A stretch of 49,027 bases of DNA from Chloroflexota bacterium (GCA_022567135.1 JADFHP010000001.1:1-49027); one strand, 5' to 3'. Positions 3,160-46,080 are shown, counted from the first letter of the stretch. Notes: generated from the sequence alone by a model not told the origin. Numbers and translations are program-made.

Positions 3160-3236
3160 GGGTCAAACCTATTGTAACGATTCGTAAGCGAGTTGGCTAA
3201 TTATCACGGGATTCAGCGTTTGCGGCTAAAAGCCCT

Positions 3237-4343
3237 CTATAACGATTCTAATCGGATGGCGAAGTCCTCGCCTTCGATCCTTGCGTTGCGGCCAATCGTG
3301 GCATGCCCGTCGGTCGCCTGAGAGTCGATCTTCAGCGGGCCTTGTGTGCGGCAAATCAGGTCGTCGTCTCGTCGGTACAAAACCACATCCCGCCGCCAGG
3401 CTTTGCACGGCACATGACAGTGCGGGTTTGGGCCCAAGATGCACGTGTCCGACATCAGCAGCACGGCATCGGCGGTCGGCTGTGTCTTGTGGTGACTGAC
3501 AATATCGAGCCGGGCCGTGGCGCTGAGCGCGTGCGGCTGGCTAAACTTTATTTTGACCCCCTGTCCCAGGTCGATCACGTTGCCGTCGACCAACCGCGTC
3601 GGTCCCTTGATCGGCTGGGCGTCGATACGAATCGTGCGGCTGGAGAGGGCCTGAACCGGTTCGAGCACGTAACCTTCCTGCTCTCGGCAAATGAGGCAAT
3701 GCCGTCGCGACAGGTCGGCGCGAATCGGCAGGTCGACGGCACCTTCGGTGCTCGGTTGTCCCACGACGATCCGCTCCCCAAGCAGCGTGAGAAAACCTCC
3801 CACGCCGTCCACCCACATCAAGAATCGCTGGTCACTGGATTGTTTCGCCACCGTATCTACCTTTGAGGCATCTCGCCGGCCTCGGGTACTCTTCGTCATG
3901 CTCGAAGGCGCCGTCGCCACAGACTTGGCTTTCGAAGACCCCGAGGCTGCAGACGCGGAACCGTGCCTTCGTAACGATCGAAAAAACTTACCGCCCGAGC
4001 GGCTCGACTGCAAACCGACCGCCTGCCAAGCGCGGTGCTGTGCTCGCTTGGCGACGGCACAGTGCGGCGCCAGCACCAAGAGCGACTCGGTCGTTGCCAA
4101 TACTTCTGTCCAATCAGCCGGAGAAGACGGCTCGCAGGCCAACAAGGCGTGCAAATCTCCGGTTAGTTGGCGGTGCTCGTCCGCCATTACCCTACATTGC
4201 CGATCGTTCTCTTCCAAGAAGGCGGAGAGCGGAGCGGCACATAAGTCCTTGCCCAACGCGGCTGCCCGAGCCCAGTTTTTCACCGCCTCGGCAAACTCAC
4301 CGCGCTGTTGGCGGATCTGTGCCTCGCGGACAGACTGAATCAC
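3237..4343 (-). CDS. FHA-domain protein (two FHA-like modules) with an N-terminal helical/TPR-like region
   Basis: 368 aa. FHA-like segments are RFLMWVDGVGGFLTLLGERIVVGQ...DLPIRADLSRRHCLI...GYVLEP and ...CILGPNPHCHVPC...ATIGRNARIEGEDFAIRL. It lies directly upstream of the kinase on the same strand. Its start overlaps the stop of the preceding gene (ATGA at 4340-4343). Confidence 0.65.
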   Translation of the reverse strand: MIQSVREAQIRQQRGEFAEAVKNWARAAALGKDLCAAPLSAFLEENDRQCRVMADEHRQLTGDLHALLACEPSSPADWTEVLATTESLLVLAPHCAVAKRAQHRAWQAVGLQSSRSGGKFFRSLRRHGSASAASGSSKAKSVATAPSSMTKSTRGRRDASKVDTVAKQSSDQRFLMWVDGVGGFLTLLGERIVVGQPSTEGAVDLPIRADLSRRHCLICREQEGYVLEPVQALSSRTIRIDAQPIKGPTRLVDGNVIDLGQGVKIKFSQPHALSATARLDIVSHHKTQPTADAVLLMSDTCILGPNPHCHVPCKAWRRDVVLYRRDDDLICRTQGPLKIDSQATDGHATIGRNARIEGEDFAIRLESL

Positions 4344-4738
4344 GTGACGCCAGCCCGCGTCGTGGCTTGCTCGGCATCGTGTCGGGCAAGCCGGTCCAAA
4401 CAGGCCAGTGCCTGTTGCGGGTCGCCCGCCATCACCAGCCTCTCGGCTTCACTCAGGGCTCGCGTGACGAACTCGCGGCGTACCGTATCGACCTGGCCTT
4501 CAGCCCCGCCCAATGACGCAGCCGCCCTTAGATCGCGCCAACCCCCCTCGCTTTGTCCGATCGCCGCCCGCTGCTCAGCTCGCTCGGCGATGGACCGCGC
4601 GACGCGGGCCGAAAGCTGCTGGCCGGGCAAAAACTCGCCGAGATCGTTCTGTTCGATTAGACGGCGGGCATCTTCCAACCGTCCTCCCTGATAAGCGAGT
4701 TTGGCTTCGTGCAGTTGAAGTCGCCAGGCTGGGAACAT
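4340..4738 (-). CDS. Small helical (TPR-like) protein, first gene of the TPR-FHA-kinase operon
   Basis: The 132-aa ORF is helical and Ala/Arg/Leu-rich. It is translationally coupled to the FHA gene. I recognised no specific family motif. Confidence 0.4.
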   Translation of the reverse strand: MFPAWRLQLHEAKLAYQGGRLEDARRLIEQNDLGEFLPGQQLSARVARSIAERAEQRAAIGQSEGGWRDLRAAASLGGAEGQVDTVRREFVTRALSEAERLVMAGDPQQALACLDRLARHDAEQATTRAGVT

Positions 4739-4777
4739 GGTAATTATTCATCAGAGTGAAACGGCGTGAAACGTATG

Positions 4778-4870
4778 TTTAGCGGTCCCGCTTGCGGGCC
4801 GTGTTGAACGGTCGCGACAAACGGGCCGCAAACGGCTCGACACACGCACCCGCAAGCGGTCCCGCTAAAC
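4778..4870. repeat. Repeat family A, inverted pair (4778-4800 forward, 4847-4870 reverse) with a third related hairpin between them
   Basis: 4778-4800 reads tttagcggtcccgcttgcgggcc. The reverse complement of 4847-4870 reads gtttagcgggaccgcttgcgggtg. An internal hairpin gggccgcaaacggctc sits at 4823-4838. The pair lies between the TPR-gene start and the stop of the coiled-coil gene. Confidence 0.65.
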
Positions 4871-4883
4871 TTCGGGATTCGAG

Positions 4884-5687
4884 TTAATGACTGGCCTGTG
4901 CCAGGTTGGCGACGATCGGCCGCTCCCATCCAAAGTACTCGGTTACTTCGTCGCGAATTTTGGCCGTGTCGATTTCTTCCAACTGGATCTCGTCGTGATA
5001 CTTTACATCGGCGTTGACGAGCTTCTCGGCCACCGCCAGGCGACTTCGCACGTCGGCCACGAGGTCCTTCACCCGAGCTAACTGACTGTCGTCAAAGTTG
5101 TATTCGCTCGATGCCTGAGCCACCTGGACCAGTTTCATCCGTGCTTCAAGATTTTCGACGTCGACTTCCAGTTGCCGCTTGGCGGCCAGCATGCCGTCGA
5201 GTTTTAGTCGGGCTGCGTCGAGGTTGCGTTGACGCGCGACGAGCATGTTGCGATGGCTTTCGAGCGTGGCGTCGCTCGTCTTATAGCGAGCAAAGCGTCG
5301 TGTCAAATCAGACTTCACCTGGTCCGACGTGTAATGCCGACCGGCAAAGTGATACATACTGCGATCGTCCTTCAAGGCCACTGTGAGCTGCTGAATCTCC
5401 TGGCGAGCCTTGGAGATACTCTGACTGGCTCCGTCGACATGCTTTTCGAGCCGCTCGACTTCGACTTCTTCCTTAGCGATCACGTGCATGCAACGCCGGA
5501 TATCCGGCACCAGATCACGTACCATCTTCCGTGCCCGGTCGATTTCGAACTCGATTGGCACACTTTCGCGGACCGAATCCCGGACCCGCTCGGCGGATGT
5601 CGTGACGTAGCTGCAGACGTTGCCGCCAAAGATCAGCACGCCCAACAGGGACAATCCACCGACTACCAGCAATGTTATCTTGATCAT
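4884..5687 (-). CDS. Membrane-anchored coiled-coil protein (possibly PspA/IM30-like)
   Basis: I trimmed the ORF to the internal ATG at 5687 (MIKITLLVVGGLSLLGVLIFGG...), which is preceded by GGAGG 7-8 nt upstream. It has an N-terminal TM helix followed by about 240 aa of heptad-rich sequence (LEARMKLVQVAQ...). The PspA assignment is tentative. Confidence 0.5.
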   Translation of the reverse strand: MIKITLLVVGGLSLLGVLIFGGNVCSYVTTSAERVRDSVRESVPIEFEIDRARKMVRDLVPDIRRCMHVIAKEEVEVERLEKHVDGASQSISKARQEIQQLTVALKDDRSMYHFAGRHYTSDQVKSDLTRRFARYKTSDATLESHRNMLVARQRNLDAARLKLDGMLAAKRQLEVDVENLEARMKLVQVAQASSEYNFDDSQLARVKDLVADVRSRLAVAEKLVNADVKYHDEIQLEEIDTAKIRDEVTEYFGWERPIVANLAQASH

Positions 5688-5850
5688 AACCAAATCCTCC
5701 AATAGAAAACGGTGTGGGTCGGGTCGCTCCACAAGTCCCGGCGGACACCTCAACATCGATTCGGGGCACTCCACCAGCGCCCACTACAATAGGGATTTCG
5801 CGGGCGGCAGGCCGATCTTGGGCCGCTCCGCAAAAAAAAGTATAAAATAG

Positions 5851-5873
5851 TTTAGCGGGACTGCTGGCGGGTG
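5851..5873 (+). repeat. Repeat family A, solitary degenerate copy
   Basis: The sequence tttagcgggactgctggcgggtg lies in the spacer between the coiled-coil gene and the TA pair. Confidence 0.5.
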
Positions 5874-5959
5874 CGAGTGTGCCTTAAGCACGGCTCGCAA
5901 ACGAGGCTCTGGCGGCCCAGGCGTCTACCCCTGTCAATCCCCCGTGGTACAATGGACGT

Positions 5960-6181
5960 ATGGACGCTCCACTCGAACAAATCCAGCAACTTCCCATCGC
6001 TGACCGATTAAGGCTTGTCGAGCAAATCTGGGACGGGATTGGTGATTCGGACGAGCCGCTCATCCTTCGTGGGTGGCACAAGGACGAGGCCCGACGGCGT
6101 TCTGCCGAATTGGACGCTGACCCGGACATCGCAATAACACGCGAAGAGCTTTGGAAGCGCGTCAACGATGCCAATGGCTGA
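5960..6181 (+). CDS. Putative addiction-module antitoxin (TIGR02574-like component)
   Basis: 73 aa with LPIADRLRLVEQIWDGI...W..E..RR..EL, which matches my recollection of the addiction module component family. It overlaps the downstream ParE/RelE-like gene. Confidence 0.65.
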   Translation: MDAPLEQIQQLPIADRLRLVEQIWDGIGDSDEPLILRGWHKDEARRRSAELDADPDIAITREELWKRVNDANG

Positions 6182-6476
6182 ATCTCTTCGTTTTCATCCG
6201 CACGTAGCCTCTGACTTGCGAGATGCGATTCGTTGGTATACCAACATTTCTCCAGAACTTGCCAACAGATTCCGCGGATCAGTCAACTCTGGCCTCGATG
6301 GTATCCTCAAGAATCCGGTGTTGTATCCCATTGCGTTCGAAGAGGTTCGCTTTGTCCGCGTCAGGTCTTTTCCGCATCTGATCCTCTACCGTTTATTGGG
6401 CAACACAGCTTACGTGCTCGGTGTGTTTCACGGAGCCAGCGATCCGGACAAGTGGCGACAGCGGGCTGAGTCATAA
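6168..6476 (+). CDS. ParE/RelE-family type II toxin
   Basis: 102 aa. The segments FHPHVASDLRDAIRWY...NRF...L..I..NP..YP......R.....FP..I.YR......V.V.GVFHG..DP are typical of plasmid-stabilisation ParE toxins. The gene overlaps the antitoxin by 14 nt; an alternative ATG lies at 6174. Confidence 0.7.
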   Translation: MPMAESLRFHPHVASDLRDAIRWYTNISPELANRFRGSVNSGLDGILKNPVLYPIAFEEVRFVRVRSFPHLILYRLLGNTAYVLGVFHGASDPDKWRQRAES

Positions 6477-6511
6477 TTCAGGGTGAGTGCTTCATGCCTA
6501 GGTGGTGAAAT

Positions 6512-7690
6512 ATGCAGCCCGACCGCGAAAAACTCGTCCAACAGATCCACGCCGGGCCGATGCAGGTCGTTCTGGCCGTGACCGGTGGCGGCAGCACAGC
6601 GATCGGCGATCTGCTGGCCGTGCCCGGGGCCTCCCGTACCGTCCTCGAAGCTAGCGTGCCTTACTCGGCCGATGCACTGGTCGATTACCTCGGGTTTGAG
6701 CCCGATCAGTCCTGCTCGGAGGCAACGGCCCGGGCCCTCGCAATGGTGGCTTTCGAGCGTGCCCGCCGGCTATCGCCCGACGATCCGTACCGGCTCATGG
6801 GTGTCGGTTGCACGGCCAGCCTGGCCAGTGACCGAGAGAAGCGCGGCCCGCATCGGGTACACGTGGCCGTGCAGACGGCACGCGGTACGCAAGTCGTATC
6901 GTGGCAGTTCAACAAGCAGCAACGCAGCCGTGCTGACGAAGAAGATCTCTCAGCCGGTCTGGTACTCGGTGCCATCGCGAATATTGACCGTAGCGACGAG
7001 TCACCGGCGGTCGAGTTCGTACCTGAATTCGGTGAGCGACTCACCACCGATCGCGTGGAGGTCCCGCCGGGCGACGATTCCTGGAGCGATCTTCTGCTCG
7101 GTTCGGCCGAGCGTGTCGCATCGCACTTTTCTAGTCAGGAGCCCCCGACCGAGAAACCACTGAGCCAAGCCATCTTTCCGGGTGCTTTTAACCCGCTGCA
7201 TGAGGCCCATCGGCAGATGGTCGATCTGGCCGGTAAGCATCTCAGCTGCCCCGTCGCCCTGGAATTGTCGATCACCAACGTCGACAAGCGGCCGCTCGAT
7301 TTTCTCGATATCCGTCGCCGACTGCTTGGCTGTCGAGGCTTGCCGGTCTGGCTTACACGAGCCGCCACATTTGCCGAGAAGGCGGCCCTGTTCCCAAAGG
7401 CCACTTTTATTGTCGGGGCCGACACGATTGCCCGCGTGGCCGACGTGAATTACTATGGAAACTGTCAGGAGCGGGATGCCGCGATCGCGGCGATTGCCGC
7501 GTCCGGGTGCCGATTCCTGGTGTTTGGCCGGCTTGTAGAGGGCAAGTTCTGTCCGCTCGAGGGTCTCGATTTGCCGCCCGCGCTTCGACAGCTTTGTGAG
7601 GGTATTGCCGAGCAGACATTTCGTGTTGACGTGTCGTCGAGTGAAATCCGGGAAACGGGCGAAATCCAGGAAGACGGGCGAAATCCGTGA
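6512..7690 (+). CDS. Fusion protein: N-terminal CinA-C/PncC-like domain + C-terminal NadD/NMNAT-like nucleotidyltransferase
   Basis: The N-terminal VLAVTGGGSTAIGDLLAVPGASRTVLEASVPYS...SEATARALA resembles the CinA C-terminal (NMN deamidase) fold. The C-terminal FPGAFNPLHEAH matches the (H/T)xGH nucleotidyltransferase motif. VDVSSSEIR matches the ISSTxxR motif. Confidence 0.6.
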   Translation: MQPDREKLVQQIHAGPMQVVLAVTGGGSTAIGDLLAVPGASRTVLEASVPYSADALVDYLGFEPDQSCSEATARALAMVAFERARRLSPDDPYRLMGVGCTASLASDREKRGPHRVHVAVQTARGTQVVSWQFNKQQRSRADEEDLSAGLVLGAIANIDRSDESPAVEFVPEFGERLTTDRVEVPPGDDSWSDLLLGSAERVASHFSSQEPPTEKPLSQAIFPGAFNPLHEAHRQMVDLAGKHLSCPVALELSITNVDKRPLDFLDIRRRLLGCRGLPVWLTRAATFAEKAALFPKATFIVGADTIARVADVNYYGNCQERDAAIAAIAASGCRFLVFGRLVEGKFCPLEGLDLPPALRQLCEGIAEQTFRVDVSSSEIRETGEIQEDGRNP

Positions 7691-10178: not shown

Positions 10179-10201
10179 GGTCTTGATTCCCGGGGAGGAT
10201 C

Positions 10202-11092
10202 ATGGGAGCGAGAGAGGCGACGACGCCGAAGGTGACGATCATCGGGTGCGGGACGCCGTCTCCGCTGCCTGACAGGTTCGGGTCGGCGCAGCTGGTGGAC
10301 ATCGCGGGCGAGAAGATTCTCTTTGATTGCGGTCCCGCTACGACGTGGAAATTGGTCCAGAACGGCGTCAGTCCGACCGAGATCAACACGGTCGTCTTCA
10401 CGCACCACCATTTCGATCACGATGCAGACTTTCCCGCCTTCATCCTGACGCGCTGGGACCAGATGGTGCCGCGCGACAGGGAGCTTTTCGTCTACGGGCC
10501 CACGCTGACGGAGGAGTTCACGAACGGGATCATCGACGAGGATAGCGGGCTTTTCCGGCACGATTGGAAGGCTCGGGTGGGCCATCTGGGCAGCCAGATC
10601 ACGTATCGGGACCGCGGCGGAGAGTTGCCGCGCTCAAAGCCGCTCGTGATTCCGAAAGACGTTGGTCCCGGCGTGATCGTCGAGACCGACAACTACCGGA
10701 TCACCGGCGCGCCGGCCGAGCATGTGCAACCGTTTCTCGACTCGCTTGCGTACAGGGTTGATACAGACGAGGGCAGCCTGGTGATCACCGGGGACACCCG
10801 CCCGTGCGACTCGGTGACCGACCTGGCGAGGGGTGCGGATGTGCTGATGATGATGTGCTGGGAATCCCACGACCGGATCTCCGCGAGCGATCACGACATC
10901 GCGACGTGCAGCATTCGCGGCGCCGCGGAGACGGCTGCGGAGGCAGGGGTGAAGCAGCTGGTGATGGTGCACATCGGCGGACGCCTGACGAAGCCTGAAA
11001 ATGCCGAGGCGAACGAGCGGGAGGCCCGGTCGGCATGGGGCGGCGAGCTGGTCTGGGGACATGAGCAGATGGTGGTTCCTTGGCCGAAGTAG
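10202..11092 (+). CDS. MBL-fold metallo-hydrolase (RNase Z/beta-lactamase_2-like)
   Basis: 296 aa with the HxHxDH motif in VVFTHHHFDHDADF and an N-terminal IIGCGTPSP. Confidence 0.8.
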   Translation: MGAREATTPKVTIIGCGTPSPLPDRFGSAQLVDIAGEKILFDCGPATTWKLVQNGVSPTEINTVVFTHHHFDHDADFPAFILTRWDQMVPRDRELFVYGPTLTEEFTNGIIDEDSGLFRHDWKARVGHLGSQITYRDRGGELPRSKPLVIPKDVGPGVIVETDNYRITGAPAEHVQPFLDSLAYRVDTDEGSLVITGDTRPCDSVTDLARGADVLMMMCWESHDRISASDHDIATCSIRGAAETAAEAGVKQLVMVHIGGRLTKPENAEANEREARSAWGGELVWGHEQMVVPWPK

Positions 11093-11919
11093 AGCGCAGG
11101 GGCTTCAGACAGGAGATCAGGGACGGCCTGAACCCGCGGCTCTGGCGAACCCGCACAAAGTTCAGCCTCGGGTTGTCGGCTGCGCTCATGATCCTGCTGA
11201 TTATCACTTCGTTTCGCACTTCCACCGACCAGGTGCCACACCCGGGGGTGATCGTTGAGACCATCATCGAGGGCCGCTACGAGGACGCCCTCGTGGCGCT
11301 TGACAAACTTGAAGCGCGGTATGAGAACGAGGCGCTGGACCCGGACATCGCGTGGATAGAGGGCGAGCGCGGCTTCATCCGGCTGAAGCAGGGCCGGTAT
11401 GCAGAGGGTGTGGACATCCTCGATCGGGCGATATCGCTCGACCCGATGCAGGCCAACTACTACAACTGGCGCGCCCTGAACTTCTTCCGCCTGGGCCGGA
11501 TGGCCGACGCCGAGGCTGACTTTACGAGCGCTCTTGAGTTGGATTCCGACAACTACCTGTGGTACCTGGACAGGGGCTATTTCTATCTCGACACCGGCAA
11601 CTTCGAAAGTGCACTGCTGGATGCCCATACGGCGATAAACCTGGAACCCAGCGACCCAATGGCGTATGGATTGCGCGCCGACGCAAATGCGAGACTCGGG
11701 CGCAACGATGTTGCTCTGTTCGACCTGGACACTCTGGTCGATCTGACCCCCGGCGACTGGCGGCCATATATCACCCGCGCCAGGGTGAAGAGCGATCTGG
11801 GCGACGTGAACGGCGCAATCGCGGACCTCGACGCGGCGCTGATTCTCGGACCGACCCCGGATGGGTTGGAGGAGATCGAATTAACACGCGCAGCCATCCT
11901 CGGTGGGACCACCGATTGA
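11080..11919 (+). CDS. TPR-repeat protein with an N-terminal TM helix
   Basis: 279 aa. There is a hydrophobic segment LGLSAALMILLIITSF and several 34-residue TPR-like units (YNWRALNFFRLGRMADAEADFTSALELD...). The start overlaps the MBL gene by 13 nt. Confidence 0.7.
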   Translation: MAEVERRGFRQEIRDGLNPRLWRTRTKFSLGLSAALMILLIITSFRTSTDQVPHPGVIVETIIEGRYEDALVALDKLEARYENEALDPDIAWIEGERGFIRLKQGRYAEGVDILDRAISLDPMQANYYNWRALNFFRLGRMADAEADFTSALELDSDNYLWYLDRGYFYLDTGNFESALLDAHTAINLEPSDPMAYGLRADANARLGRNDVALFDLDTLVDLTPGDWRPYITRARVKSDLGDVNGAIADLDAALILGPTPDGLEEIELTRAAILGGTTD

Positions 11920-11932
11920 AAGTGACCCCAGC

Positions 11933-13651
11933 ATGGTCGTAACGCAGTATGACAACGTGCCTATTGAGGCCGAGTACGACCTTCCGATGGAGACGCGCGA
12001 CGGCACGGTGTTGAAGTCGGACGTCTACCGGCCGTCGGGCTCTGGAAAATACCCGACGCTGCTGCTGCGGACGCCGTACTGGAAGCAGCATCCGCGCTAC
12101 GTCAAGGCGGCGCGGGCGATGGCGGCCCGCGGGTACACCGTGGTCAACCAGGACATGCGCGGCCGCTACGCGTCGGAAGGTGAGTTCCGCTGGCAGTTCA
12201 TGCGAAACGACCTGACGTTCGATGCTGCCGACGGCTACGACAGCGTCGAGTGGGCGGCGCAGTTGCCGTCGAGCGACGGGCAGGTCGGCACGTGGGGCCA
12301 CTCGTACGACGCCTGGTGCGCGTGGCGGCTGGCGGAACTACAGCCGCCGAGCCTGAAGGCTCTGCACGCCAGCGGCATGGGCACCAATTCGCTGGAGATG
12401 AACTTCGGCGTGTTCGAGACGGGCCGCAGGCTGGAGTGGTCGTACATGATGGCCGCCGATCTGCGCCGCAGAGAGGGCGTCGAGCATGGTCCGCTCGACC
12501 CGTTCGAGGCGGTGCGTTACTGGCGTGAGGTCGAGCGCGGGAAGTGGCTCTGGTATCTGCCGCTTGACGATATACCGGAAGAGCCGTTTTCGACACTGAC
12601 GCCGCAGCTCAAGGCGTTCTATCGAGAGCAGAACGTGGAGATGTGGGACTTTTCCTCGATTCACCCGAAGGTGAACGTGCCGACCTGCACTTTCACGGGC
12701 TGGTGGGACCGGATTATCGGGACCGTCAATCAATACTCCGGCATGATCGCGAACGGGCCGGCAGAGTTTCGCGATCAGCACCGGCTGGTGGTCGGCCCGT
12801 GGAGCCACATGATGACGAATCTTCGTCGCGACCTCGGTCCGGTCGACTACGGACCAGAAGCGCAGGCGGAGTGGACCGACCTGATCACGCGCTGGTACGA
12901 CTGGCAGTTCAAGCAGATCGACAACGGCTATGCCGAAGAGCCGCCGGTGCGGCTGTTCATCGTCAACGAGAACCGGTGGCGGCTTGAGCATGAGTGGCCG
13001 CTGGCGCGCGCCGAGTACACGGACTTCTTCCTGCACAGTGACGGGGCTGCGAACACCCCTGCCGGGAACGGCTCGCTGAGCATGGACGAATCGGGCGGCG
13101 AGACGCCGGACGGCTATGCGTACGACCCGCGCGACCCGGTTATGAGCGTGATGGACATCGACGCGCAGGCGATGCCGCGCGATCAGGCGCCGCTCGACGG
13201 CAGGCGGGACGTTCTGGTCTACCAGACACCGCCGCTTGAACAGGAGATCGAGATCACCGGCCCGGTGGTGCTGAAGCTCTTCGCCGCGTCTGACGCTCCG
13301 GACACCGACTTCACGGCCAAGCTGGTGATCGTCTACGAGGACGGCACGGCTGTGAACCTGACGTACGGCATCGTGCGCGCCCGGTACCGCGACGGGTACG
13401 ACTCGCCCACGCTGCTGGAGCCGGGCGAGCCGTACGAGTACACGATCAGGCTCAACCCGGTGGGCGTCCTGATCCGGCCGGGGCAGCGGCTGCGGCTGGA
13501 TATCTCTTCATCGGACTTCCCGAACTTCGACCGCAACCACAACACGGGCGCTGATTTCTGGTCGGATGCCGAGCTTCGGACCGCGCGCCAGACCGTCTTC
13601 CACGACCGTGAGCGGCCGTCGCGGCTGATCCTGCCGGTTATACCGCGCTAG
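11933..13651 (+). CDS. CocE/NonD-family hydrolase (S15 X-Pro dipeptidyl-peptidase-like)
   Basis: Trimmed to the ATG at 11933 (MVVTQYDNVPIE...). METRDGTVLKSDVYRPSGSGKYPTLLLRTPY is the typical family N-terminus. The protein also has GTWGHSYDAW (nucleophile elbow) and a C-terminal jelly-roll region. Confidence 0.85.
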   Translation: MVVTQYDNVPIEAEYDLPMETRDGTVLKSDVYRPSGSGKYPTLLLRTPYWKQHPRYVKAARAMAARGYTVVNQDMRGRYASEGEFRWQFMRNDLTFDAADGYDSVEWAAQLPSSDGQVGTWGHSYDAWCAWRLAELQPPSLKALHASGMGTNSLEMNFGVFETGRRLEWSYMMAADLRRREGVEHGPLDPFEAVRYWREVERGKWLWYLPLDDIPEEPFSTLTPQLKAFYREQNVEMWDFSSIHPKVNVPTCTFTGWWDRIIGTVNQYSGMIANGPAEFRDQHRLVVGPWSHMMTNLRRDLGPVDYGPEAQAEWTDLITRWYDWQFKQIDNGYAEEPPVRLFIVNENRWRLEHEWPLARAEYTDFFLHSDGAANTPAGNGSLSMDESGGETPDGYAYDPRDPVMSVMDIDAQAMPRDQAPLDGRRDVLVYQTPPLEQEIEITGPVVLKLFAASDAPDTDFTAKLVIVYEDGTAVNLTYGIVRARYRDGYDSPTLLEPGEPYEYTIRLNPVGVLIRPGQRLRLDISSSDFPNFDRNHNTGADFWSDAELRTARQTVFHDRERPSRLILPVIPR

Positions 13652-38676: not shown

Positions 38677-38862
38677 GTTTGGCGCTCAGGCATGGTCCTG
38701 CGCCCATCCGCCCGTGAATCCCATCGCCAGACCGGCCTTGACCCTAATTTGACTTCTGACAATGACGATTCTGCTAGCCTCATCTAATCGCGCCCGTCCC
38801 TGGGTGCCTGGGGGTCGCCCGGGAGTGCGTGGGACGGGGTCAGTGGGAAGCGAGACGCTGAG

Positions 38863-41800
38863 TTGGCCACTCGGATCGAAGAGTCCCTGACACCGCTGAG
38901 CGATGAGGCGATTCGAAGCCTCGTTGAGATAGGTCGCGCGCTGAGCGATGAGCCCGAACTGAGCAGTGCGTTCGAGCGCGTCGTGAAAGCCATGGCGGAG
39001 GTCATCGACTTCGACCGGCTTGTGATCTCGATTGTCGATCTTGCGAAGGGAACGGTCGTCGACGCGAATATCGCCGGTTCGCCCATTGCTGAGCGCACGC
39101 CGGACGATGTCAGGCCCTTGAGCGGCACGGTTGCGCAATACTTCGTGGACAGGACCGAGCCAATCGTCGTCAACGTCGAAACGGTGCAGAGCGCGCTGGA
39201 GAAATTCCCGGCGCTGCAGCGGATCGTCGATGCGGGACTCGAGTCCGGAATCTCAGTTCCCCTCCGGAGCCGGGACGACCTCGTCGGCGTGCTCCATGTG
39301 CGTTCGTATTCTGTGGACGAGTACTCCGCGGCGGACGTCGCATTCACGGAAGCGGTGAGCCATCAGCTCGCAGGGCCGCTGGCATCCGAGCAGTTGCGAT
39401 TACGGCTGGTACAGAGCGCACTGGAAGAGTCGGTTCTGGCGGAGATAAGCAGAATCCTCGGCTCCGGCCTGCGCGTTGAGGACATGTTCGAGCAGTTCGG
39501 CGAGCAGGTGAAACGGCTCGTCCCGTTTCAGAGAATGGTTATTGCAACGGCAGACCCGGCCTCTCATACGGCGAGGGACGAGTATGTGACCGGCCTCGGA
39601 CGGTCTGGTTGGATCCCGGGCGAAAACGTCTCGCTCACCGGGTCGTTGGCCGAGTACATGGTGCACCGCAGAAGTCCGGTCTATGTTTTTGAGGGCGACG
39701 AGAGTTTTGTTGGCAAAGTGCCAGACGACGATCATCATCGCCAATCGATCGGTCTCGCCTCGCTGATCTCTGTTCCAATGATCGCCCAGGGCGAGCTGAT
39801 CGGGAATCTGAACGTTCGTGAAAAAGAGCTGTCGGCCTATACTCTCGACGATGTCCGCAAGATGGAGCGCGTCGCCGCGCAGATAGCCGGAACGCTGGCC
39901 AACCAGAAGCTTCACGACAGCATCTCGCGCCAGGCTTCGGAACGGGAGGTTCTTGCCGAGATCGGCCGCACGATCAACTCAACTTTGCGCCTGGAAGAGG
40001 TATTTGAGCAGTTTGCCGTGCAGGCGAGGAAACTGATCCCGTTCGATCGGATCGTGATTTCACGAGTCGAAGCCGAGTCAGACGATCTAGTGGACGCCTA
40101 CGTATCCGGGCGCGGGGTCGAGGGTTACTCTCAGGGTGGCAGGCACGAGCTTTCGTCGACTACCACGTCTGAGGTGGTCCGGACGGGGCGTAGCCATATG
40201 TGGGCCAAAGCTGAACTGGAGCGACAGGCGAAAGAACTGGACCCTGCGGCGCGCGCGCTGGAAAGCGGACTCAACTCCCTGCTCATAACTCCCCTCGTCT
40301 GGCAGGGAGGGGTTGTGGGGACCGTCAATTTCCGTTCCGAACTGCCCGATCCATACGGGCCGGACGAGATCCGTCTTGCGGAGGAGATCGGAGCGCAGAT
40401 CGCCGGAGCGATCGCCACGACACGTCTCTACGAGGAGTCGGAGCGGGAATCAGCGATTCGGAAAGGCCTGGCCGAGATCGGCAAAATCATGACCTCGAGC
40501 CTCGATCTCAACGAGGTGTTTCCCCGTTGCGCAGATCAGATCGCGCGGCTGATTCCGTTCGACCGCCTCGCGATAATCCTGGTCGATGAAGATGCCGGAA
40601 CGAAGACGGACGCGTATTCCGTCGGCATTGAGATTCCCGGACAAGAGCCCGGTGTGGTGACACCATTGGCGAACTCATTTGCGGAAGAGATCCTCGAGAA
40701 CGGCGGCCCGCTGCTGATAGGGGCGGCGGAGCTGGCCGATCGAGCCGAGAGATTTCCCGGAACGCGTGCGCGCGTTGAGCACGGGCTGATCAGTCTCATC
40801 GCGGTCCCGCTCCTCTGGCGCGGCCGCCCCATGGGAATTTTGAACATCCGGTCCACGCAGGATGACGCTTACGGGTCTGGTGATGTTGAACTGGCCACGC
40901 TGATCGCGGCACAGATTGCGGGCAGCGTGGCGACGTCCACAATGTACGCAGAGTCCGAGCGGGAAGCGGAGATCAGAAAAGGGCTTGCTGCAATTGCAGT
41001 AGCGGCCGCCTCTGACCTTCGGCTTGACCAGATGCTTGAAGGCGTCGCGGATGAGCTGGCGTCTGTAATTCCCTACGACCGCATGTCGGTAACGCTTCGG
41101 GACGTTGATGACCCGCTACAGCTCCGGGTCGCGTTTATTCATGGCATCGAAGTCCCGGACTACGCCGTCGGTGACGTGGTCGCGATCAACCCGGACGGCG
41201 AGGGTCAACCCTGGTCATGGCGGAGCAGTTTCATGACCGGGCTTGGAAGCGAGGAAAGGCCGGGCCTGCTGCGGAGAAGCGGCGAAGAGTTGGGCAGGGA
41301 GTCGTGGATCGAGGTTCCGCTTGGCTCTCCAGAGGAAGGCCCCGTCGGCTACCTGGGCCTGCGCAGCGGAGAGAGCCATGAATACTCCGAAGCCGATCTC
41401 GAGGTGTTGAAAAGAGTGGCGGCGCAGATAACGCCGTCTATCAGCAATAGTCGTCTCCACGAGCAACTCCAGGCAGAGGCACGAGAGCGCGAACTTCTCG
41501 CTGAAATCGGGCGCGTGATCGGAGACGCCCGCAATGTGAGCGAACTTTTTTCACAGTTCAAGGGACTGGCCCAGGCCTTGATCCCATCAGATGGTATCGC
41601 CATCGCGACGATCGACTCGAGAACGCAGCGGTTCACCATCCAGGAGATCCACGCGCCTGATCGTATCGAGATGATCGAACGCGGCACAGAACTGCCTCTG
41701 TTCCCTTCGATGAGCGGAGAGGCATACGAACAGCGGGCTACGATCGTCTACTGCCCCGCGAGCGCTGAAGAGGCGGGCAAGCGATCTCCATCACTGAACC

Positions 41801-44004
41801 GGCTATATGAACTCGGCTCCAGGTCTTTCATGGCGTGCCCGCTGATCTCAAGACGTGAAATCCTGGGCACTCTGCTGTTCCAATCTTCGGCCACGGATGC
41901 TTATACGGAAAAGCACATGCAGCTCGCTGATCGTCTCGCGCGTCAAATCGCAGGGAAGATGGAGTCGGCGCAGTTCCAGGCCCAGTTGCAGGAGGAAGCA
42001 AAAGAGAACGAGCTGCTAGCGGAGGTTGGCCGCGTGATTAGCGGATCAGTCGACATCGGGGAGATGTTTGCGCAATTCAAAGGTCTCGCCCGGGAACTGC
42101 TGCCGATTGATGGGCTGGGCATCGCTCTAATAGACGCGGAGACTGACACGCTGGTCCTGGCCCAGGTCGATACCGGCGGTATCGATCCTTCCCCACCTGC
42201 CCCTGGAGAGATCCGCCGCCGTCTGCAGGATTCGCTGGCGAGGGACGCCTATGCCACCGGGAAACCGGTCATCTACTGCCCGGAAGACCCGGATGACATC
42301 CCCGCTGACTATCCCGGTCTGGAGAGACTTCGCGAAATAGGGGCGAGATCGTTCATGGCGGCGCCCCTCATCTCGCACGGCGAGACACTCGGAGCGCTCG
42401 TGCTCTGGGCGAGGAAGCCATCGGCGTTCAGCGAAGACGATGCCAGGCTCGCCGAACGGCTGGCCAACCAGATCGCCGGTAAGCTCGAGATTGCGAATCT
42501 CGTGGCCGACGTCTCCAAGCTGGCGGCGACCGTTGACGCGAGCCCCGACTTCATTTCACTCTCCGACCCGGATTTCAGGCTCGAATACACGAATCCGGCC
42601 GGCCTTGACCTGATGGGCATGCTCCCCCTTGACGAGACGGACGCTGTCCGGGTGCCGGACCTGTTCACACCGAGCGATGCCAGACGGCTTGAGAGCGAGG
42701 GCCTTAACCAGGCGTTGAGAGTGGGGTTCTGGTGGGCAGAGCTGGAGGCAATGAGGTCCGACGGCTCGACCCTCCCGGTGGAGGCATTGCTAGTGCCGAT
42801 CAAGGATTCCGGTGGCGCGGTGCAGAGCTTCAGCCTCCAGTTCCGTGACATTTCCAGGCGAGTTGCGATTCAAAAAGCGCTCGAAGAAAGCGAAGAGCAC
42901 TACCGAGACCTTTTTGAGAACGCTGAGGAGCTGATTCAGTCCGCTGATGCCGAGGGAAATATTCTTTATGCCAACCGAGCCTGGAAGAGAAGACTGGGCT
43001 ACCGGTCGAGTGAAATCAGATCGATGACGATATGGGACGTCATTCATCCCGATGGCCTTGAACACTGCCGGGAAGTGTTTGCGAAGATCGCCAGCGGCGA
43101 ATCGGTTGGTGAATTTGATGCCGAGTTCGTGACGAAGGCGGGCCAGAAGGTCTTCGTTCGCGGCACAACAACCTACAGATTTGAAGATGGCCGGCCGATT
43201 TCGACGCGGGGAATTTTCAGGGACGTGGGCGCCCGCCTCGAAGTGGAGAAGATGAAGGATGAGTTCGTTTCGATGGTCAGCCACGAACTCCGGACGCCGC
43301 TGACGTCAATCAGGGGTTCTCTGGGCATGCTGGCCAGCGGGCTGCTCGAAGATCGGCCTGAGCAGGCCCGGCGGATGCTGGAGATTGCGTCGGCAAACAC
43401 CGACCGCCTGGTCCGCCTGATCAACGACATTCTGGACATCGAACGGATCGAGTCGCGCGCGATTGACATGGACCTGGCGGCGGTTGACGCGCGGGAAGTG
43501 ATCGGACAGGCCGCCGAAGAGATGCAGTCCTTCGCGGATGAAAGGATGGTCCGTCTGGACGCACGTCCCGGGACGGCATGGGTCATGGCTGATCGCGATC
43601 GAATTGTGCAGACGCTCACGAATCTGATCAGCAATGCCGTCAAGTTCTCTGAGCCGGAATCGACCGTTACGATCGACTGTCACCAGGAGGACGAGCGGGT
43701 TCTGTTCACTGTATCCGACTCCGGCCGCGGGATACCTCCGGAAAAGATCGACGCGATCTTCGAGCGATTCAAGCAAGCCGACTCCTCCGATTCCCGCGAC
43801 AAGGGCGGAACCGGACTGGGGCTCGCAATCTGCAGGTTGATCGTCGAGCAACACGGCGGTCAAATATACGTTGAAAGCGAGATGGGCGCTGGCAGCACGT
43901 TTACTTTCTGGTTGATTCGCGCGCCGTTATCGGAGGTTCCCGCCGCCGGCGATGTTTCCGGCGTTGCTGGCGAACTGATGGCGGCCCCTGGTGAACAAGC
44001 GTGA
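38863..44004 (+). CDS. Giant cytoplasmic sensor histidine kinase: 7 x GAF, 2 x PAS, HisKA, HATPase_c (no TM helix, no receiver)
   Basis: 1713 aa with a TTG start. The anchor motif L(A/V)E(I/V)G(R/K)..........F..........(L)IP(F)DR...I occurs at residues 20, 192, 364, 536, 708, 879 and 1052. Each module ends in ..A.QIAG..A. The H-box is SHELRTPLTSI, the N-box is NLISNAVKF, G1 is DSGRGI and G2 is GGTGLGLAI. Confidence 0.9.
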   Translation: MATRIEESLTPLSDEAIRSLVEIGRALSDEPELSSAFERVVKAMAEVIDFDRLVISIVDLAKGTVVDANIAGSPIAERTPDDVRPLSGTVAQYFVDRTEPIVVNVETVQSALEKFPALQRIVDAGLESGISVPLRSRDDLVGVLHVRSYSVDEYSAADVAFTEAVSHQLAGPLASEQLRLRLVQSALEESVLAEISRILGSGLRVEDMFEQFGEQVKRLVPFQRMVIATADPASHTARDEYVTGLGRSGWIPGENVSLTGSLAEYMVHRRSPVYVFEGDESFVGKVPDDDHHRQSIGLASLISVPMIAQGELIGNLNVREKELSAYTLDDVRKMERVAAQIAGTLANQKLHDSISRQASEREVLAEIGRTINSTLRLEEVFEQFAVQARKLIPFDRIVISRVEAESDDLVDAYVSGRGVEGYSQGGRHELSSTTTSEVVRTGRSHMWAKAELERQAKELDPAARALESGLNSLLITPLVWQGGVVGTVNFRSELPDPYGPDEIRLAEEIGAQIAGAIATTRLYEESERESAIRKGLAEIGKIMTSSLDLNEVFPRCADQIARLIPFDRLAIILVDEDAGTKTDAYSVGIEIPGQEPGVVTPLANSFAEEILENGGPLLIGAAELADRAERFPGTRARVEHGLISLIAVPLLWRGRPMGILNIRSTQDDAYGSGDVELATLIAAQIAGSVATSTMYAESEREAEIRKGLAAIAVAAASDLRLDQMLEGVADELASVIPYDRMSVTLRDVDDPLQLRVAFIHGIEVPDYAVGDVVAINPDGEGQPWSWRSSFMTGLGSEERPGLLRRSGEELGRESWIEVPLGSPEEGPVGYLGLRSGESHEYSEADLEVLKRVAAQITPSISNSRLHEQLQAEARERELLAEIGRVIGDARNVSELFSQFKGLAQALIPSDGIAIATIDSRTQRFTIQEIHAPDRIEMIERGTELPLFPSMSGEAYEQRATIVYCPASAEEAGKRSPSLNRLYELGSRSFMACPLISRREILGTLLFQSSATDAYTEKHMQLADRLARQIAGKMESAQFQAQLQEEAKENELLAEVGRVISGSVDIGEMFAQFKGLARELLPIDGLGIALIDAETDTLVLAQVDTGGIDPSPPAPGEIRRRLQDSLARDAYATGKPVIYCPEDPDDIPADYPGLERLREIGARSFMAAPLISHGETLGALVLWARKPSAFSEDDARLAERLANQIAGKLEIANLVADVSKLAATVDASPDFISLSDPDFRLEYTNPAGLDLMGMLPLDETDAVRVPDLFTPSDARRLESEGLNQALRVGFWWAELEAMRSDGSTLPVEALLVPIKDSGGAVQSFSLQFRDISRRVAIQKALEESEEHYRDLFENAEELIQSADAEGNILYANRAWKRRLGYRSSEIRSMTIWDVIHPDGLEHCREVFAKIASGESVGEFDAEFVTKAGQKVFVRGTTTYRFEDGRPISTRGIFRDVGARLEVEKMKDEFVSMVSHELRTPLTSIRGSLGMLASGLLEDRPEQARRMLEIASANTDRLVRLINDILDIERIESRAIDMDLAAVDAREVIGQAAEEMQSFADERMVRLDARPGTAWVMADRDRIVQTLTNLISNAVKFSEPESTVTIDCHQEDERVLFTVSDSGRGIPPEKIDAIFERFKQADSSDSRDKGGTGLGLAICRLIVEQHGGQIYVESEMGAGSTFTFWLIRAPLSEVPAAGDVSGVAGELMAAPGEQA

Positions 44005-44381
44005 GCAGCCGGCGCATCCTCCTGGTCGATGACGACCCCGGGATTCGGGAGGTTACCCGTGTATCGCTCGAAGCGACGATGGGGTGGGAGGTTCTGACTG
44101 CGGCCTCCGGAAACGAGGCGCTTCGGCTGGCGGGCGAAGAGGTTTTCAACGCCATCCTTCTGGACGTGATGATGCCAGACATGGATGGCGCGGAGACTTT
44201 CGCCCGGCTCCGGGAGCATGAAAAGAGCCGGGCCATCCCGGTGGTGCTACTAACGGCGAAGACGCAGAAGGCGGACCTTGCCAGCTACGCCGAGATGGGC
44301 GTGGCGGGCACGGTGCAGAAACCGTTCGACCCGATGTCCCTGGGCCGTGAGGTGGCAGATGCTCTGGGTTGGGAGGATTGA
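44001..44381 (+). CDS. Single-domain response-regulator receiver (CheY-like)
   Basis: 126 aa with all canonical positions present: LLVDDD, LLDVMMPDMDG, LLTA and QKPF. The GTG start overlaps the kinase stop (GTGA). Confidence 0.9.
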   Translation: MSSRRILLVDDDPGIREVTRVSLEATMGWEVLTAASGNEALRLAGEEVFNAILLDVMMPDMDGAETFARLREHEKSRAIPVVLLTAKTQKADLASYAEMGVAGTVQKPFDPMSLGREVADALGWED

Positions 44382-44399
44382 TAGATTCCGAACCTGATC

Positions 44400-44759
44400 A
44401 TGAATGACCGACGCGAACAAGAATTAGAACAGCAGCTCAACGAAGCCATAGCCGCGGTATGGGAACGGCGGCGAGATCAGGTGATGGGCAGAGTGGGGGT
44501 GCTGGTGCGGGTGGCCGAATCGCTGCGCGAGAGTGCGGCGCCAGAAGTGACGCCCGGCGTGGCGCCGGAAATGACGTCAGAAGCAAAAGATGAGGCCCAC
44601 AGGCTGGCCGGGTCGCTGGGGAGCTTTGGTTTCGATGAAGGTTCCGGCATCGCAGCGGAGATCGAAGAACTCCTGTCGCAGGCAATTGGCGACCCTGAGT
44701 GGATCGACAGGGTTGAAACGAAGGTCATGGCGCTCAAGGCTTACATGGAGACGAGATGA
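44400..44759 (+). CDS. Stand-alone Hpt (histidine phosphotransfer) protein
   Basis: 119 aa, helical. EAHRLAGSLGSFGF matches the Hpt signature HxLKGSSxxxG. Confidence 0.65.
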   Translation: MNDRREQELEQQLNEAIAAVWERRRDQVMGRVGVLVRVAESLRESAAPEVTPGVAPEMTSEAKDEAHRLAGSLGSFGFDEGSGIAAEIEELLSQAIGDPEWIDRVETKVMALKAYMETR

Positions 44760-44813
44760 CCCAGACGATCCAGACGACATCAGTTCCGGCAGCATAGGAA
44801 GCCCGAGTCTGCA

Positions 44814-45494
44814 ATGCACGTACTGATCGTTGAAGATACCCCTGAAGTGGTCGAGATCATCGATGTCGCACTGAAGCTGCGCTGGGCGGATTGCGAGGTG
44901 ACGAGCATAGACAGGGGTGGGCTGGCGCCGGGAATCGTCGCCTCGGCAAGGCCCGACCTGATCATGCTTGACCTGGGCCTTCCGGACGTTGACGGGATTG
45001 ACCTGCTGGAGCAGATCAGGCGCATATCCGAAGTACCGGTGATAATCCTGACCTCGCGTGCCCATGAGGCGGCCAGAGTCCGCGGGCTGGAGACCGGCGC
45101 CGACGATTACATGGTCAAGCCGTTTTCCGCTACTGAGATGCTGGCCAGAGTTCAGGCCGTCCTCCGGCGCGCTTCGCGTTCTGGTGGCGGAGCCGTGGGA
45201 ATTATCACGCGGGAGTCGCTCGCTGTAGACCTGGAGCAGCGCTCCGTGACTGTGGACGGACAGTTCGTCCCGCTTTCCAGGCTGGAGTGGGAAGTCTTTT
45301 CATACCTTGCCAGGAACGCCGGGAAGGTCGTGAAGCACAACGACTTGAAGCAACGCGGCTGGGGGAGCACCATCGTTGAGGATAGTGTTGTGAAGATGTG
45401 CATCCGCCGCATCCGGGGCAAACTGAGCAAAACGGGCGGTGACCCGGAGGTGATTCTCACCCACCGAGGGACAGGGTACAGCTTCATCGGCTGA
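44814..45494 (+). CDS. OmpR/PhoB-family response regulator (REC + winged-helix DNA-binding domain)
   Basis: 226 aa with LIVEDT, IMLDLGLPDVDG, ILTS and VKPF. The C-terminal region LSRLEWEVFSYLARNAG.VV......GYSF is typical of trans_reg_C. Confidence 0.92.
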   Translation: MHVLIVEDTPEVVEIIDVALKLRWADCEVTSIDRGGLAPGIVASARPDLIMLDLGLPDVDGIDLLEQIRRISEVPVIILTSRAHEAARVRGLETGADDYMVKPFSATEMLARVQAVLRRASRSGGGAVGIITRESLAVDLEQRSVTVDGQFVPLSRLEWEVFSYLARNAGKVVKHNDLKQRGWGSTIVEDSVVKMCIRRIRGKLSKTGGDPEVILTHRGTGYSFIG

Positions 45495-45588
45495 CAGCTA
45501 GCGCCCGCCGGATCGGTTACCAAACCGTTACTTTTCGGCTGCGCTGGGAAACCTTAACGGCCTCCGCCTGTCGTTAGCGTTGTTATTG

Positions 45589-45637
45589 CTGCCCGGGGGT
45601 GTCCGAAATCCAGTCCACGCCGGATGCCCCCGGGCAG
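45589..45637. repeat. Perfect 11-bp inverted repeat (CTGCCCGGGGG ... CCCCCGGGCAG) with a 27-nt loop
   Basis: The arms are 45589-45599 and 45627-45637, in the spacer between the OmpR-type regulator and the degenerate receiver gene. No U-tract follows (tattcc). Confidence 0.45.
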
Positions 45638-45684
45638 TATTCCGCCGCGCCCCGCATCGCCAGTCACGACTAGATGAGGCCAAG

Positions 45685-46080
45685 TTGACCCAGATAAAGG
45701 TCCTTGTACTGCATGGCGATGATGCCGTCCGGAGCCGGGTCATCTCCCATCTGCAAGACCTGGGCTCATTCGAAACCAGGCATTACGCCAGCGGACGCGA
45801 CGCGCGGGATGCATGCCGCGAGTTCTACCCCGACATCGTCATAGTCGACACTTCGGTGCTGGACGTCGCCACGAGCGAGCTTATTGAGAGGCTCCGGCCA
45901 TCGGTGCCACAGCAGCGGCTGGTGCTGACGTCGGCCACTTCCGCTTCGAGTGCCGGGCATGCCGGTCTGCTTCGCCACGAGCCCAATGCCGTCCTGTGGT
46001 CTCCTTTCGGCCGCTGGGAGTTCCAGCAGGCTGTGCAAGACCAGATAGCCGCCCTGGGCGAAATCAGCCGCGCGTCCTGA
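45685..46080 (+). CDS. Atypical (degenerate) receiver-domain protein
   Basis: I prefer the TTG at 45685, with GAGG 5 nt upstream. The sequence is LTQIKVLVLHGDD...DIVIVDTSVLDV...LVLTS...VLWSPF. The fold pattern and phospho-Asp position are retained, but the conserved Lys of KPF is Ser. Confidence 0.5.
   Translation: MTQIKVLVLHGDDAVRSRVISHLQDLGSFETRHYASGRDARDACREFYPDIVIVDTSVLDVATSELIERLRPSVPQQRLVLTSATSASSAGHAGLLRHEPNAVLWSPFGRWEFQQAVQDQIAALGEISRAS

Follow-up and report, generated by a model that had tools for sequence, protein, structure and literature searches.

The window considered here, that is, the whole stretch of 49,027 nucleotides (nt) deposited as JADFHP010000001.1:1-49027 (GCA_022567135.1; contig C94), belongs to a 2.6-Mb metagenome-assembled genome of the Chloroflexota (Dehalococcoidia) that is 83% complete. 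It carries four consecutive genes on the + strand, coding for a sensor histidine kinase, a stand-alone receiver, a stand-alone histidine phosphotransfer (Hpt) protein and an OmpR-type regulator, and the catalytic residues are intact in all four modules. We propose, with a probability of about 0.68, that these genes encode a cytoplasmic four-step His-Asp-His-Asp phosphorelay made of separate proteins, which would represent a taken-apart relative of the Rca-type relays of cyanobacteria. Domain identities, catalytic residues, conserved gene order and homology were observed directly, whereas which proteins exchange phosphate and in which direction, what DNA is bound, what signal is perceived and what a fifth gene of the block does are inferred. 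The original prediction for this locus had also read it as a relay of separate polypeptides; the conserved His of the Hpt protein, the clade in which the receiver falls, the fusions between Hpt and regulator and the gene order favour this part of it, whereas the architecture itself is not new.

A conserved block of kinase, receiver, Hpt and regulator genes

The open reading frames (ORFs) and their translation define the following features, whose protein lengths are given in amino acids (aa).

38863-44004, + strand: soluble sensor histidine kinase, 1713 aa (Pfam, translation and residue positions)
43252-43914, + strand: transmitter core of this kinase, with HisKA at 43252-43455 and HATPase_c at 43591-43914 (Pfam)
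44001-44381, + strand: stand-alone receiver, 126 aa, proposed RcaF-like intermediary (PF00072, 92.1 bits; GTGA overlap with the kinase gene)
44400-44759, + strand: stand-alone Hpt protein, 119 aa (PF01627, 38.1 bits against a cut-off of 24.6)
44814-45494, + strand: OmpR/PhoB-family response regulator, 226 aa, proposed terminal acceptor (Pfam)

The genes are separated by -4, 18 and 54 nt, and being consecutive and so closely spaced they look like one operon. The GTG start of the receiver gene overlaps the TGA stop of the kinase gene (gcGTGAgc, with GTGA at 44001-44004), an arrangement through which we propose that the two are translationally coupled. A fifth co-directional gene, coding for a degenerate receiver (45685-46080), follows the regulator after a spacer of 190 nt. 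The original prediction had described a kinase with a 7xGAF input and without receiver domain, its stop overlapping the start of a canonical stand-alone receiver, followed by an Hpt protein and finally by an OmpR-family DNA-binding regulator. All of this was recovered, each of the four genes lying where it had been placed, but the fifth conserved gene had been overlooked.

The kinase combines seven GAF and two PAS domains with HisKA (residues 1464-1531, 78.3 bits) and HATPase_c (residues 1577-1684, 113.7 bits), and the Pfam scan of the 1713-aa protein gave no Response_reg (PF00072) match. Its H-box, SHELRTPL, contains the phospho-accepting His1474 (nt 43282-43284), and the nucleotide-binding part displays the N box NLISNAVKF from residue 1587, the G1 box DSGRGI at 1619 and the G2 box GGTGLGL at 1648. 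The signal that it perceives is probably a small molecule or a redox change.

The receiver is a single domain with no output domain in Pfam, and possesses the canonical pocket, formed by the acidic pair D10/D11, the acceptor Asp55 (nt 44163-44165), T85 and K107; it reaches no NCBIfam equivalog threshold. The regulator associates a Response_reg domain (PF00072, 88.9 bits) with a Trans_reg_C domain (PF00486, 61.2 bits), and its receiver holds the acceptor D53 (nt 44970-44972), T80, the switch residue Y99 and K102. Since its scores stay below every NCBIfam equivalog cut-off, this protein should not be regarded as the orthologue of a named regulator.

The identity of the 119-aa protein is central to the proposal, and the original assignment to Hpt would have fallen if the protein had matched no Hpt model or if its homologues had lacked a conserved His. 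PF01627 is matched at 38.1 bits (E-value 1.9e-9) for a gathering threshold of 24.6, and the homologues also carry a PF01627 match. The motif EAHRLAGSLGSFGF contains the putative phospho-accepting His67 (nt 44598-44600) and, at H+4, Gly71; both residues, together with their GxxGxxGF context, are invariant across 19 aligned homologues, down to 29% identity. A glycine at H+4 is given as a conserved Hpt feature in PMC6341664. The sequence profile of the protein also matches the P1 domain of CheA (1tqg in the PDB) with an E-value of 3.9e-4, and NCBIfam contains no family for the 119-aa protein. In the AlphaFold2 model (pLDDT 88.4, pTM 0.80) four helices are predicted, with His67 in helix 2 (residues 55-76), and a Foldseek search of the PDB with this model placed Hpt and CheA-P1 chains (3kyj, TM-score 0.69, root mean square deviation 2.1) among designed bundles. 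The modelled fold is thus compatible with an Hpt protein and is not diagnostic by itself. The window Hpt is the sole non-CheA Hpt found in its own genome.

As had been advised in the original prediction, the gene order was compared between related genomes, by tblastn and ORF calls. The succession kinase-receiver-Hpt-regulator-degenerate receiver is kept in three genomes of the same genus (G004, G002 and G001), and the metagenome contig L142 shows the same five genes flanked by the same tyrS and aminotransferase genes; another locus, L090, carries the 3' part of the block. Across these conserved loci the identities fall as low as 32-43% for Hpt, 58-60% for the receiver, 62-63% for the regulator and 39-42% for the fifth gene product. 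Because the order has been maintained while the proteins diverged to 32-63% identity, the arrangement appears to be more than chance and the order to be under selection. A recent horizontal transfer of the block into this genome was considered and rejected as unsupported: its GC content (0.60-0.62) equals that of the remainder of the window, and the flanking genes, tyrS upstream and an aminotransferase gene downstream, are syntenic in the genus.

Relationship to Rca-type relays and to other known systems

The nearest relatives of the kinase core, the small receiver and the Hpt protein outside the Chloroflexota are all found in cyanobacterial loci holding an RcaC-like gene. When one genome per species was scanned with a degenerate pattern, 260 Hpt relatives were found, the best 80 of them almost all cyanobacterial. 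In cyanobacteria these relatives are embedded in proteins with the organisation REC-Trans_reg_C-Hpt-REC(-REC)(-GGDEF), REC standing for receiver, as assigned by a domain script and checked with Pfam on seven proteins; many of the loci also contain a kinase gene and then a stand-alone receiver gene. The kinase core shares 48-56% identity with about 30 kinases from such loci, most of whose genes precede a stand-alone receiver gene, about as much as with the orthologues of its own genus (57%) and more than with any paralogue of its own genome (at most 43%). In a FastTree phylogeny of receivers (127 columns), the window receiver sits in a 57-row clade made solely of stand-alone receivers of cyanobacterial-type loci (Shimodaira-Hasegawa-like support 89), and the receiver of the regulator is grouped with 73 N-terminal receivers from RcaC-like proteins, in a clade that is starred (97).

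The two kinds of receiver bear different signatures. Within the 57-row clade the acceptor pocket (DD/D/T/K) is kept in 56 to 57 of the 57 members, and none has an aromatic residue at the beta5 switch position (V in 27, I in 22, T in 5, L in 2 and A in 1), which is occupied by Thr104 in the window receiver. In contrast, all 80 OmpR-type receivers of the same loci have Y or F there. Intermediary receivers shuttle phosphate without allosteric change, their aromatic switch residue being lost or variable (PMC9981736). The missing aromatic residue fits a passive intermediary role for the small receiver, which, without allosteric switch residue, would act as a simple shuttle. The FATGUY motif is absent from beta4 of this protein, where the sequence is VVLLTAKTQ; since the motif is also missing from some intermediary receivers such as ShkA (PMC9981736), it does not strictly define them.

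The Rca system of Fremyella diplosiphon (RcaE-RcaF-RcaC), which governs chromatic acclimation, similarly comprises a GAF-containing kinase without receiver and a separate single-domain receiver, and RcaE phosphorylates RcaC via the single-domain RcaF (PMC8256508, PMC13492139). In the cyanobacterial Rca-type family, moreover, the Hpt belongs to the sequence subfamily of the window Hpt, and the DNA-binding output is likewise of the OmpR type. The order REC-wHTH-Hpt-REC (wHTH, winged helix-turn-helix) is what we take to be that of RcaC, the partner of RcaE and RcaF, and Kehoe and Grossman are said to have introduced Rca in 1997 as a 'novel four-step phosphorelay'. The differences are also clear. 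The Hpt of the window is a free protein of 119 aa, whereas that of RcaC-type proteins is embedded between the DNA-binding domain and the second receiver; the regulator is made up of two domains only, without the RcaC-type C-terminal receiver, which the separate degenerate receiver possibly replaces; and seven GAF domains serve as the input, in a marine member of the Dehalococcoidia that is not photosynthetic. Because the host lineage is non-photosynthetic, a bilin-binding cyanobacteriochrome input sensing light colour is unlikely. With its free Hpt (119 aa) and its regulator of only two domains, the block fits the Rca-type relay family best as a split variant, and it is filed here as such rather than as a member.

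The distribution of the cassette is patchy. Among 401 sampled genomes of the class Dehalococcoidia, the Hpt profile matches only that of the window, and among 41 close relatives it matches five; most other Hpt matches in the class are open frames of about 600-900 aa, a size fitting CheA. An exhaustive profile search gave 3,533 family representatives, including 1,684 with an E-value of at most 1e-10. A word-based search had suggested that the free Hpt was unique to the genus, which was rejected: 65 of the best 150 representatives are at most 170 aa long, some of them possibly gene fragments, and several occur next to a receiver gene in other lineages. Five such proteins, outside the syntenic locus of the genus itself, were examined in their context. 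A receiver-Hpt pair follows a probable kinase in L141, and another lies on the short contig L146; the 903-nt contig L147 contains an unassigned 105-aa ORF and then a free Hpt; L148 runs from a receiver fragment through Hpt to a REC-GGDEF-REC protein; and L149 shows the series KaiB-KaiC, kinase, receiver and Hpt. The signature of the window receiver (LLDVMMPxMDG, LTAKxQ and a non-aromatic residue three positions before KPF) recurs in the receivers of L141, L146, L148 and L149, among which those of L141, L146 and L149 also end in LGW. Judging from these contexts, the fully split form is not unique, and a cassette of kinase, receiver and free Hpt with varied outputs recurs in other metagenomes. 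The novelty that the original prediction attached to the architecture was accordingly overstated, in view both of these cassettes and of the kinship of the components with cyanobacterial Rca-type loci. There is also an earlier census, in which 31 'HK-HPt-RR-RR' clusters (HK, histidine kinase; RR, response regulator) were already listed from 7,609 genomes, none of them in Chloroflexi or Cyanobacteria (PMC4558063; Salvado et al. 2015, PeerJ, Table S9). These clusters have the four-gene composition of the block, the census recording composition only, without order, subfamily or function.

Two variants of the cassette deserve mention. In L149 (positions 3061-7363 of a 1.79-Mb metagenome contig), the gene preceding the receiver and the free Hpt encodes a REC-PAS kinase and lies directly 3' of the kaiB and kaiC homologues, and this raises the possibility that certain cassettes of the family read out a Kai-type clock. 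Paralogous cassettes of the same genus and order, L006 (G002:C3, 30-3072) and L005 (G025:C5, 18-3246), combine a kinase with a receiver of the same type (125-126 aa) and with an Hpt-REC-REC-GGDEF fusion protein; L005 has in addition a 155-aa ORF of receiver-like appearance, situated between the genes for the last two.

Other known relays resemble the block in part. The Bacillus subtilis KinA-E/Spo0F/Spo0B/Spo0A pathway is also of the His-Asp-His-Asp type, with all modules separate and a single-domain receiver in second position. However, Spo0B is a dimeric phosphotransferase resembling the dimerization and histidine phosphotransfer region of kinases, whereas the third component here is a PF01627 Hpt; Spo0A has an output domain of its own instead of an OmpR winged helix; and the spo0 genes are scattered, those described here forming one block. 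The LuxN/LuxQ-LuxU-LuxO, CckA-ChpT-CtrA and ArcB/RcsC types resemble it in chemistry, in step number and in the free phosphotransfer protein between two receivers, but hybrid-kinase relays fuse the first receiver to the kinase, whereas here it is encoded by a separate, apparently translationally coupled gene. The alphaproteobacterial general-stress relays (Pak -> SdrG/MrrA -> PhyT/LovK -> PhyR) likewise employ a non-allosteric single-domain intermediary receiver, placed between the kinase and a second phosphotransferase (PMC5898713, PMC5964349). Their second His carrier is kinase-like rather than an Hpt, their output is an anti-anti-sigma factor, and their receivers carry the FATGUY motif where that of the window has LLTAKTQ.

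Proposed phosphate flow and alternative explanations

In the proposed relay, the 7xGAF-2xPAS kinase would sense its signal and autophosphorylate on His1474, from which the phosphoryl group would pass to Asp55 of the 126-aa receiver, acting as a passive shuttle, then to His67 of the Hpt, modelled as a four-helix bundle, and finally to Asp53 of the OmpR-family regulator, which would dimerise and bind DNA. Its likely first target would be a GTTAC-N6-GTTAC direct repeat located directly 3' of the regulator gene, where it would control the adjacent gene for the pseudo-receiver; the latter may in turn influence the relay by feedback. Two observations support a sequence of steps that leads from the kinase through the small receiver and the Hpt to the output. 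Kinase, small receiver and Hpt form a constant trio while the terminal receiver varies, the outputs seen being an OmpR regulator, Hpt-REC-REC-GGDEF, REC-GGDEF-REC and a single REC, as expected if phosphate leaves through the Hpt. Moreover, the fusions tie Hpt to terminal receivers, and would link Hpt and regulator in the Rosetta-stone sense.

Several points weigh against this interpretation. When a kinase and an OmpR regulator share an operon, phosphate usually passes directly from the one to the other. The Foldseek search of the PDB with the Hpt model gave no significant match (best E-value 0.039), an outcome that is explained by the generic nature of four-helix bundles. The support of 89 leaves the clade of small receivers unstarred in a FastTree analysis of 127 columns. 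The affiliation was built on cyanobacterial proteins that are RcaC-like rather than on RcaC itself, a name that is borne by none of the 120 best-listed entries among the at least 1683 relatives found for the RcaC-like protein tested. Finally, one hybrid kinase ending in a receiver, the single protein of this kind found in the genome (C11:10188-11864), could use the window Hpt.

The first of these points leads to the main rival, a branched two-component system in which the kinase would phosphorylate the OmpR regulator directly, the receiver being a sink or buffer and the Hpt draining or redistributing phosphate by reverse transfer, so as to tune the response. The kinase and the regulator lie in one co-directional block, which is the usual arrangement of cognate pairs, and single-domain receivers are well established as phosphate sinks in chemotaxis-type systems. 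Such a branched design is nevertheless hard to reconcile with a set of kinase core, receiver and Hpt that is kept in different phyla, next to terminal receivers of varying type, nor does it agree with the Rca signal, which is reported to reach RcaC via RcaF, and we regard it as unlikely.

The hybrid kinase raises a different possibility, that the free Hpt receives phosphate chiefly from elsewhere, be it from this C11 protein or from kinases missing from the bin, the kinase and small receiver of the operon being one among several inputs that converge on the regulator. The presence of one such hybrid kinase beside a single non-CheA Hpt, in a bin that is 83% complete, speaks in this direction, and LuxU and ChpT are known as free Hpt proteins that integrate several kinases (PMC12471899, a review). 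But the Hpt is encoded directly after the small receiver and the kinase in every related locus examined, those of other lineages included, and additional inputs would supplement a four-step relay rather than replace it; a hub serving mostly foreign donors is thus quite improbable. Chance adjacency, by which an ordinary kinase-regulator pair would lie beside an orphan receiver and a helical protein merely resembling an Hpt, could invoke the structure search, which by itself leaves the 119-aa protein indistinguishable from four-helix bundles in general, designed ones included. It is close to refuted by the curated Pfam cut-off that this protein exceeds, by the invariance of its His and H+4 Gly, by the 1684 family representatives at an E-value of at most 1e-10, by the five-gene order kept in several genomes and by the recurrence of the receiver-Hpt pair in distant lineages. 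A four-step relay of separate proteins remains the reading that we prefer.

In the C11 region itself (10188-13592 in all), two receiver-containing genes follow that of the hybrid kinase, a protein that might additionally supply phosphate to the free Hpt.

The usual explanation for multi-step relays is the additional control that they allow, and to our knowledge nearly all the bacterial examples studied fuse at least two of the modules. The four modules of the block, as small, soluble and separate proteins homologous to the genetically studied, fused Rca system, would thus provide a convenient natural experiment on the effects of fusion versus separation on specificity, noise and cross-talk, and on the differences between intermediary and terminal receivers. 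The entry points for phosphatases and the cross-talk that the original prediction derived from the split design are plausible consequences of it; the role that it assigned to the system, a developmental or metabolic decision circuit, is speculation. The presence of a cassette typical of cyanobacteria in a narrow clade of the abundant deep-ocean SAR202 group, whose regulation is almost unstudied, gives a first glimpse of signalling in these bacteria; its practical value is modest.

The fifth gene and the conserved non-coding elements

Beyond the four genes, the block comprises a further gene and three non-coding elements.

38749-38779, + strand: promoter-like block, TTGACT ... TCTGCTAGCC, about 90-110 nt 5' of the kinase start (partial conservation in the genus)
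45513-45534, + strand: conserved 22-nt block TCGGTTACCAAACCGTTACTTT containing a GTTAC-N6-GTTAC direct repeat, about 20 nt after the regulator stop (identity between five loci)
45587-45639, + strand: hairpin of 19 bp whose 15-nt loop, (A/T)AATCCAGTCCACGC, is nearly invariant, just 5' of the fifth gene (minimum free energy and covariation)
45685-46080, + strand: fifth gene, degenerate (pseudo-)receiver, 131 aa (conserved position; sub-threshold PF00072 match)

The product of the fifth gene scores 22.9 bits with PF00072, below the cut-off of 30.2, and reaches no NCBIfam equivalog threshold. The acidic metal-binding pair is replaced by His-Gly and the catalytic Lys by Ser (WSPF), two substitutions retained in 10 aligned homologues, and the acceptor Asp is lost in L036. 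The gene sits after that of the regulator in L007, L008, L009, L090 and L142, and only 12 clusters of homologues were found, each at least 66% identical. On these features, its product is classed as a pseudo-receiver, confined to this clade.

The spacer between the regulator and the fifth gene contains two conserved elements. The 22-nt block is identical in the window and in L007, L008, L009 and L090, while the flanks diverge. Its repeat has an 11-bp period, as typical of OmpR-family sites, and occurs in three copies in the genome for about 0.5 expected, which makes it a candidate binding site for the regulator; the same segment also matches a weak terminator-like hairpin pattern. The hairpin has a minimum free energy z-score of -4.2. 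Changes on both sides affect 4 of its 19 pairs, and 93.9% of the cells pair against at most 50% with slid partners, in a sample of only six sequences from three lineages. Searching the intergenic region against Rfam gave no meaningful match to it, and a metagenome scan with an 18-mer of the loop gave 51 exact matches, among which only L090 and L128 are true homologues, the others being due to chance or lying inside an unrelated coding sequence. The hairpin may act as a structured leader at the 5' end of the mRNA, as a site bound by a protein or as an atypical terminator.

Together, the two spacer blocks suggest that the pseudo-receiver gene may be controlled separately, possibly by the regulator of the relay. 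A more elaborate scheme is conceivable, in which the GTTAC-N6-GTTAC repeat would be the main direct target of the regulator and would control the hairpin-bearing pseudo-receiver, which would then bind the Hpt or the kinase and throttle the phosphate flow. We consider this feedback circuit a long shot. If true, the pseudo-receiver, not normally phosphorylatable, would represent a novel type of relay regulator, one that the separation of the modules into individual proteins would permit.

Upstream of the kinase gene, TTGACTTCTGA and TCTGCTAG are common to the window and L007, and TCTGCTA(G/C) is also found in L008 and L009, within diverging surroundings; the segment 38749-38779 is put forward only as a putative promoter of the kinase gene.

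The two other genomic copies of the repeat are located at C118:14381 and, on the - strand, at C107:5195, the former 128 nt past the stop of another OmpR-family regulator gene (C118:13555-14253). In L128 (Ga0114996_10000321, 1296-1959), the hairpin and the degenerate-receiver gene are immediately preceded by a short GAF-like fragment corresponding to kinase residues 15-83, with no receiver, Hpt or regulator in between, and this contig may represent a deletion variant of the locus.

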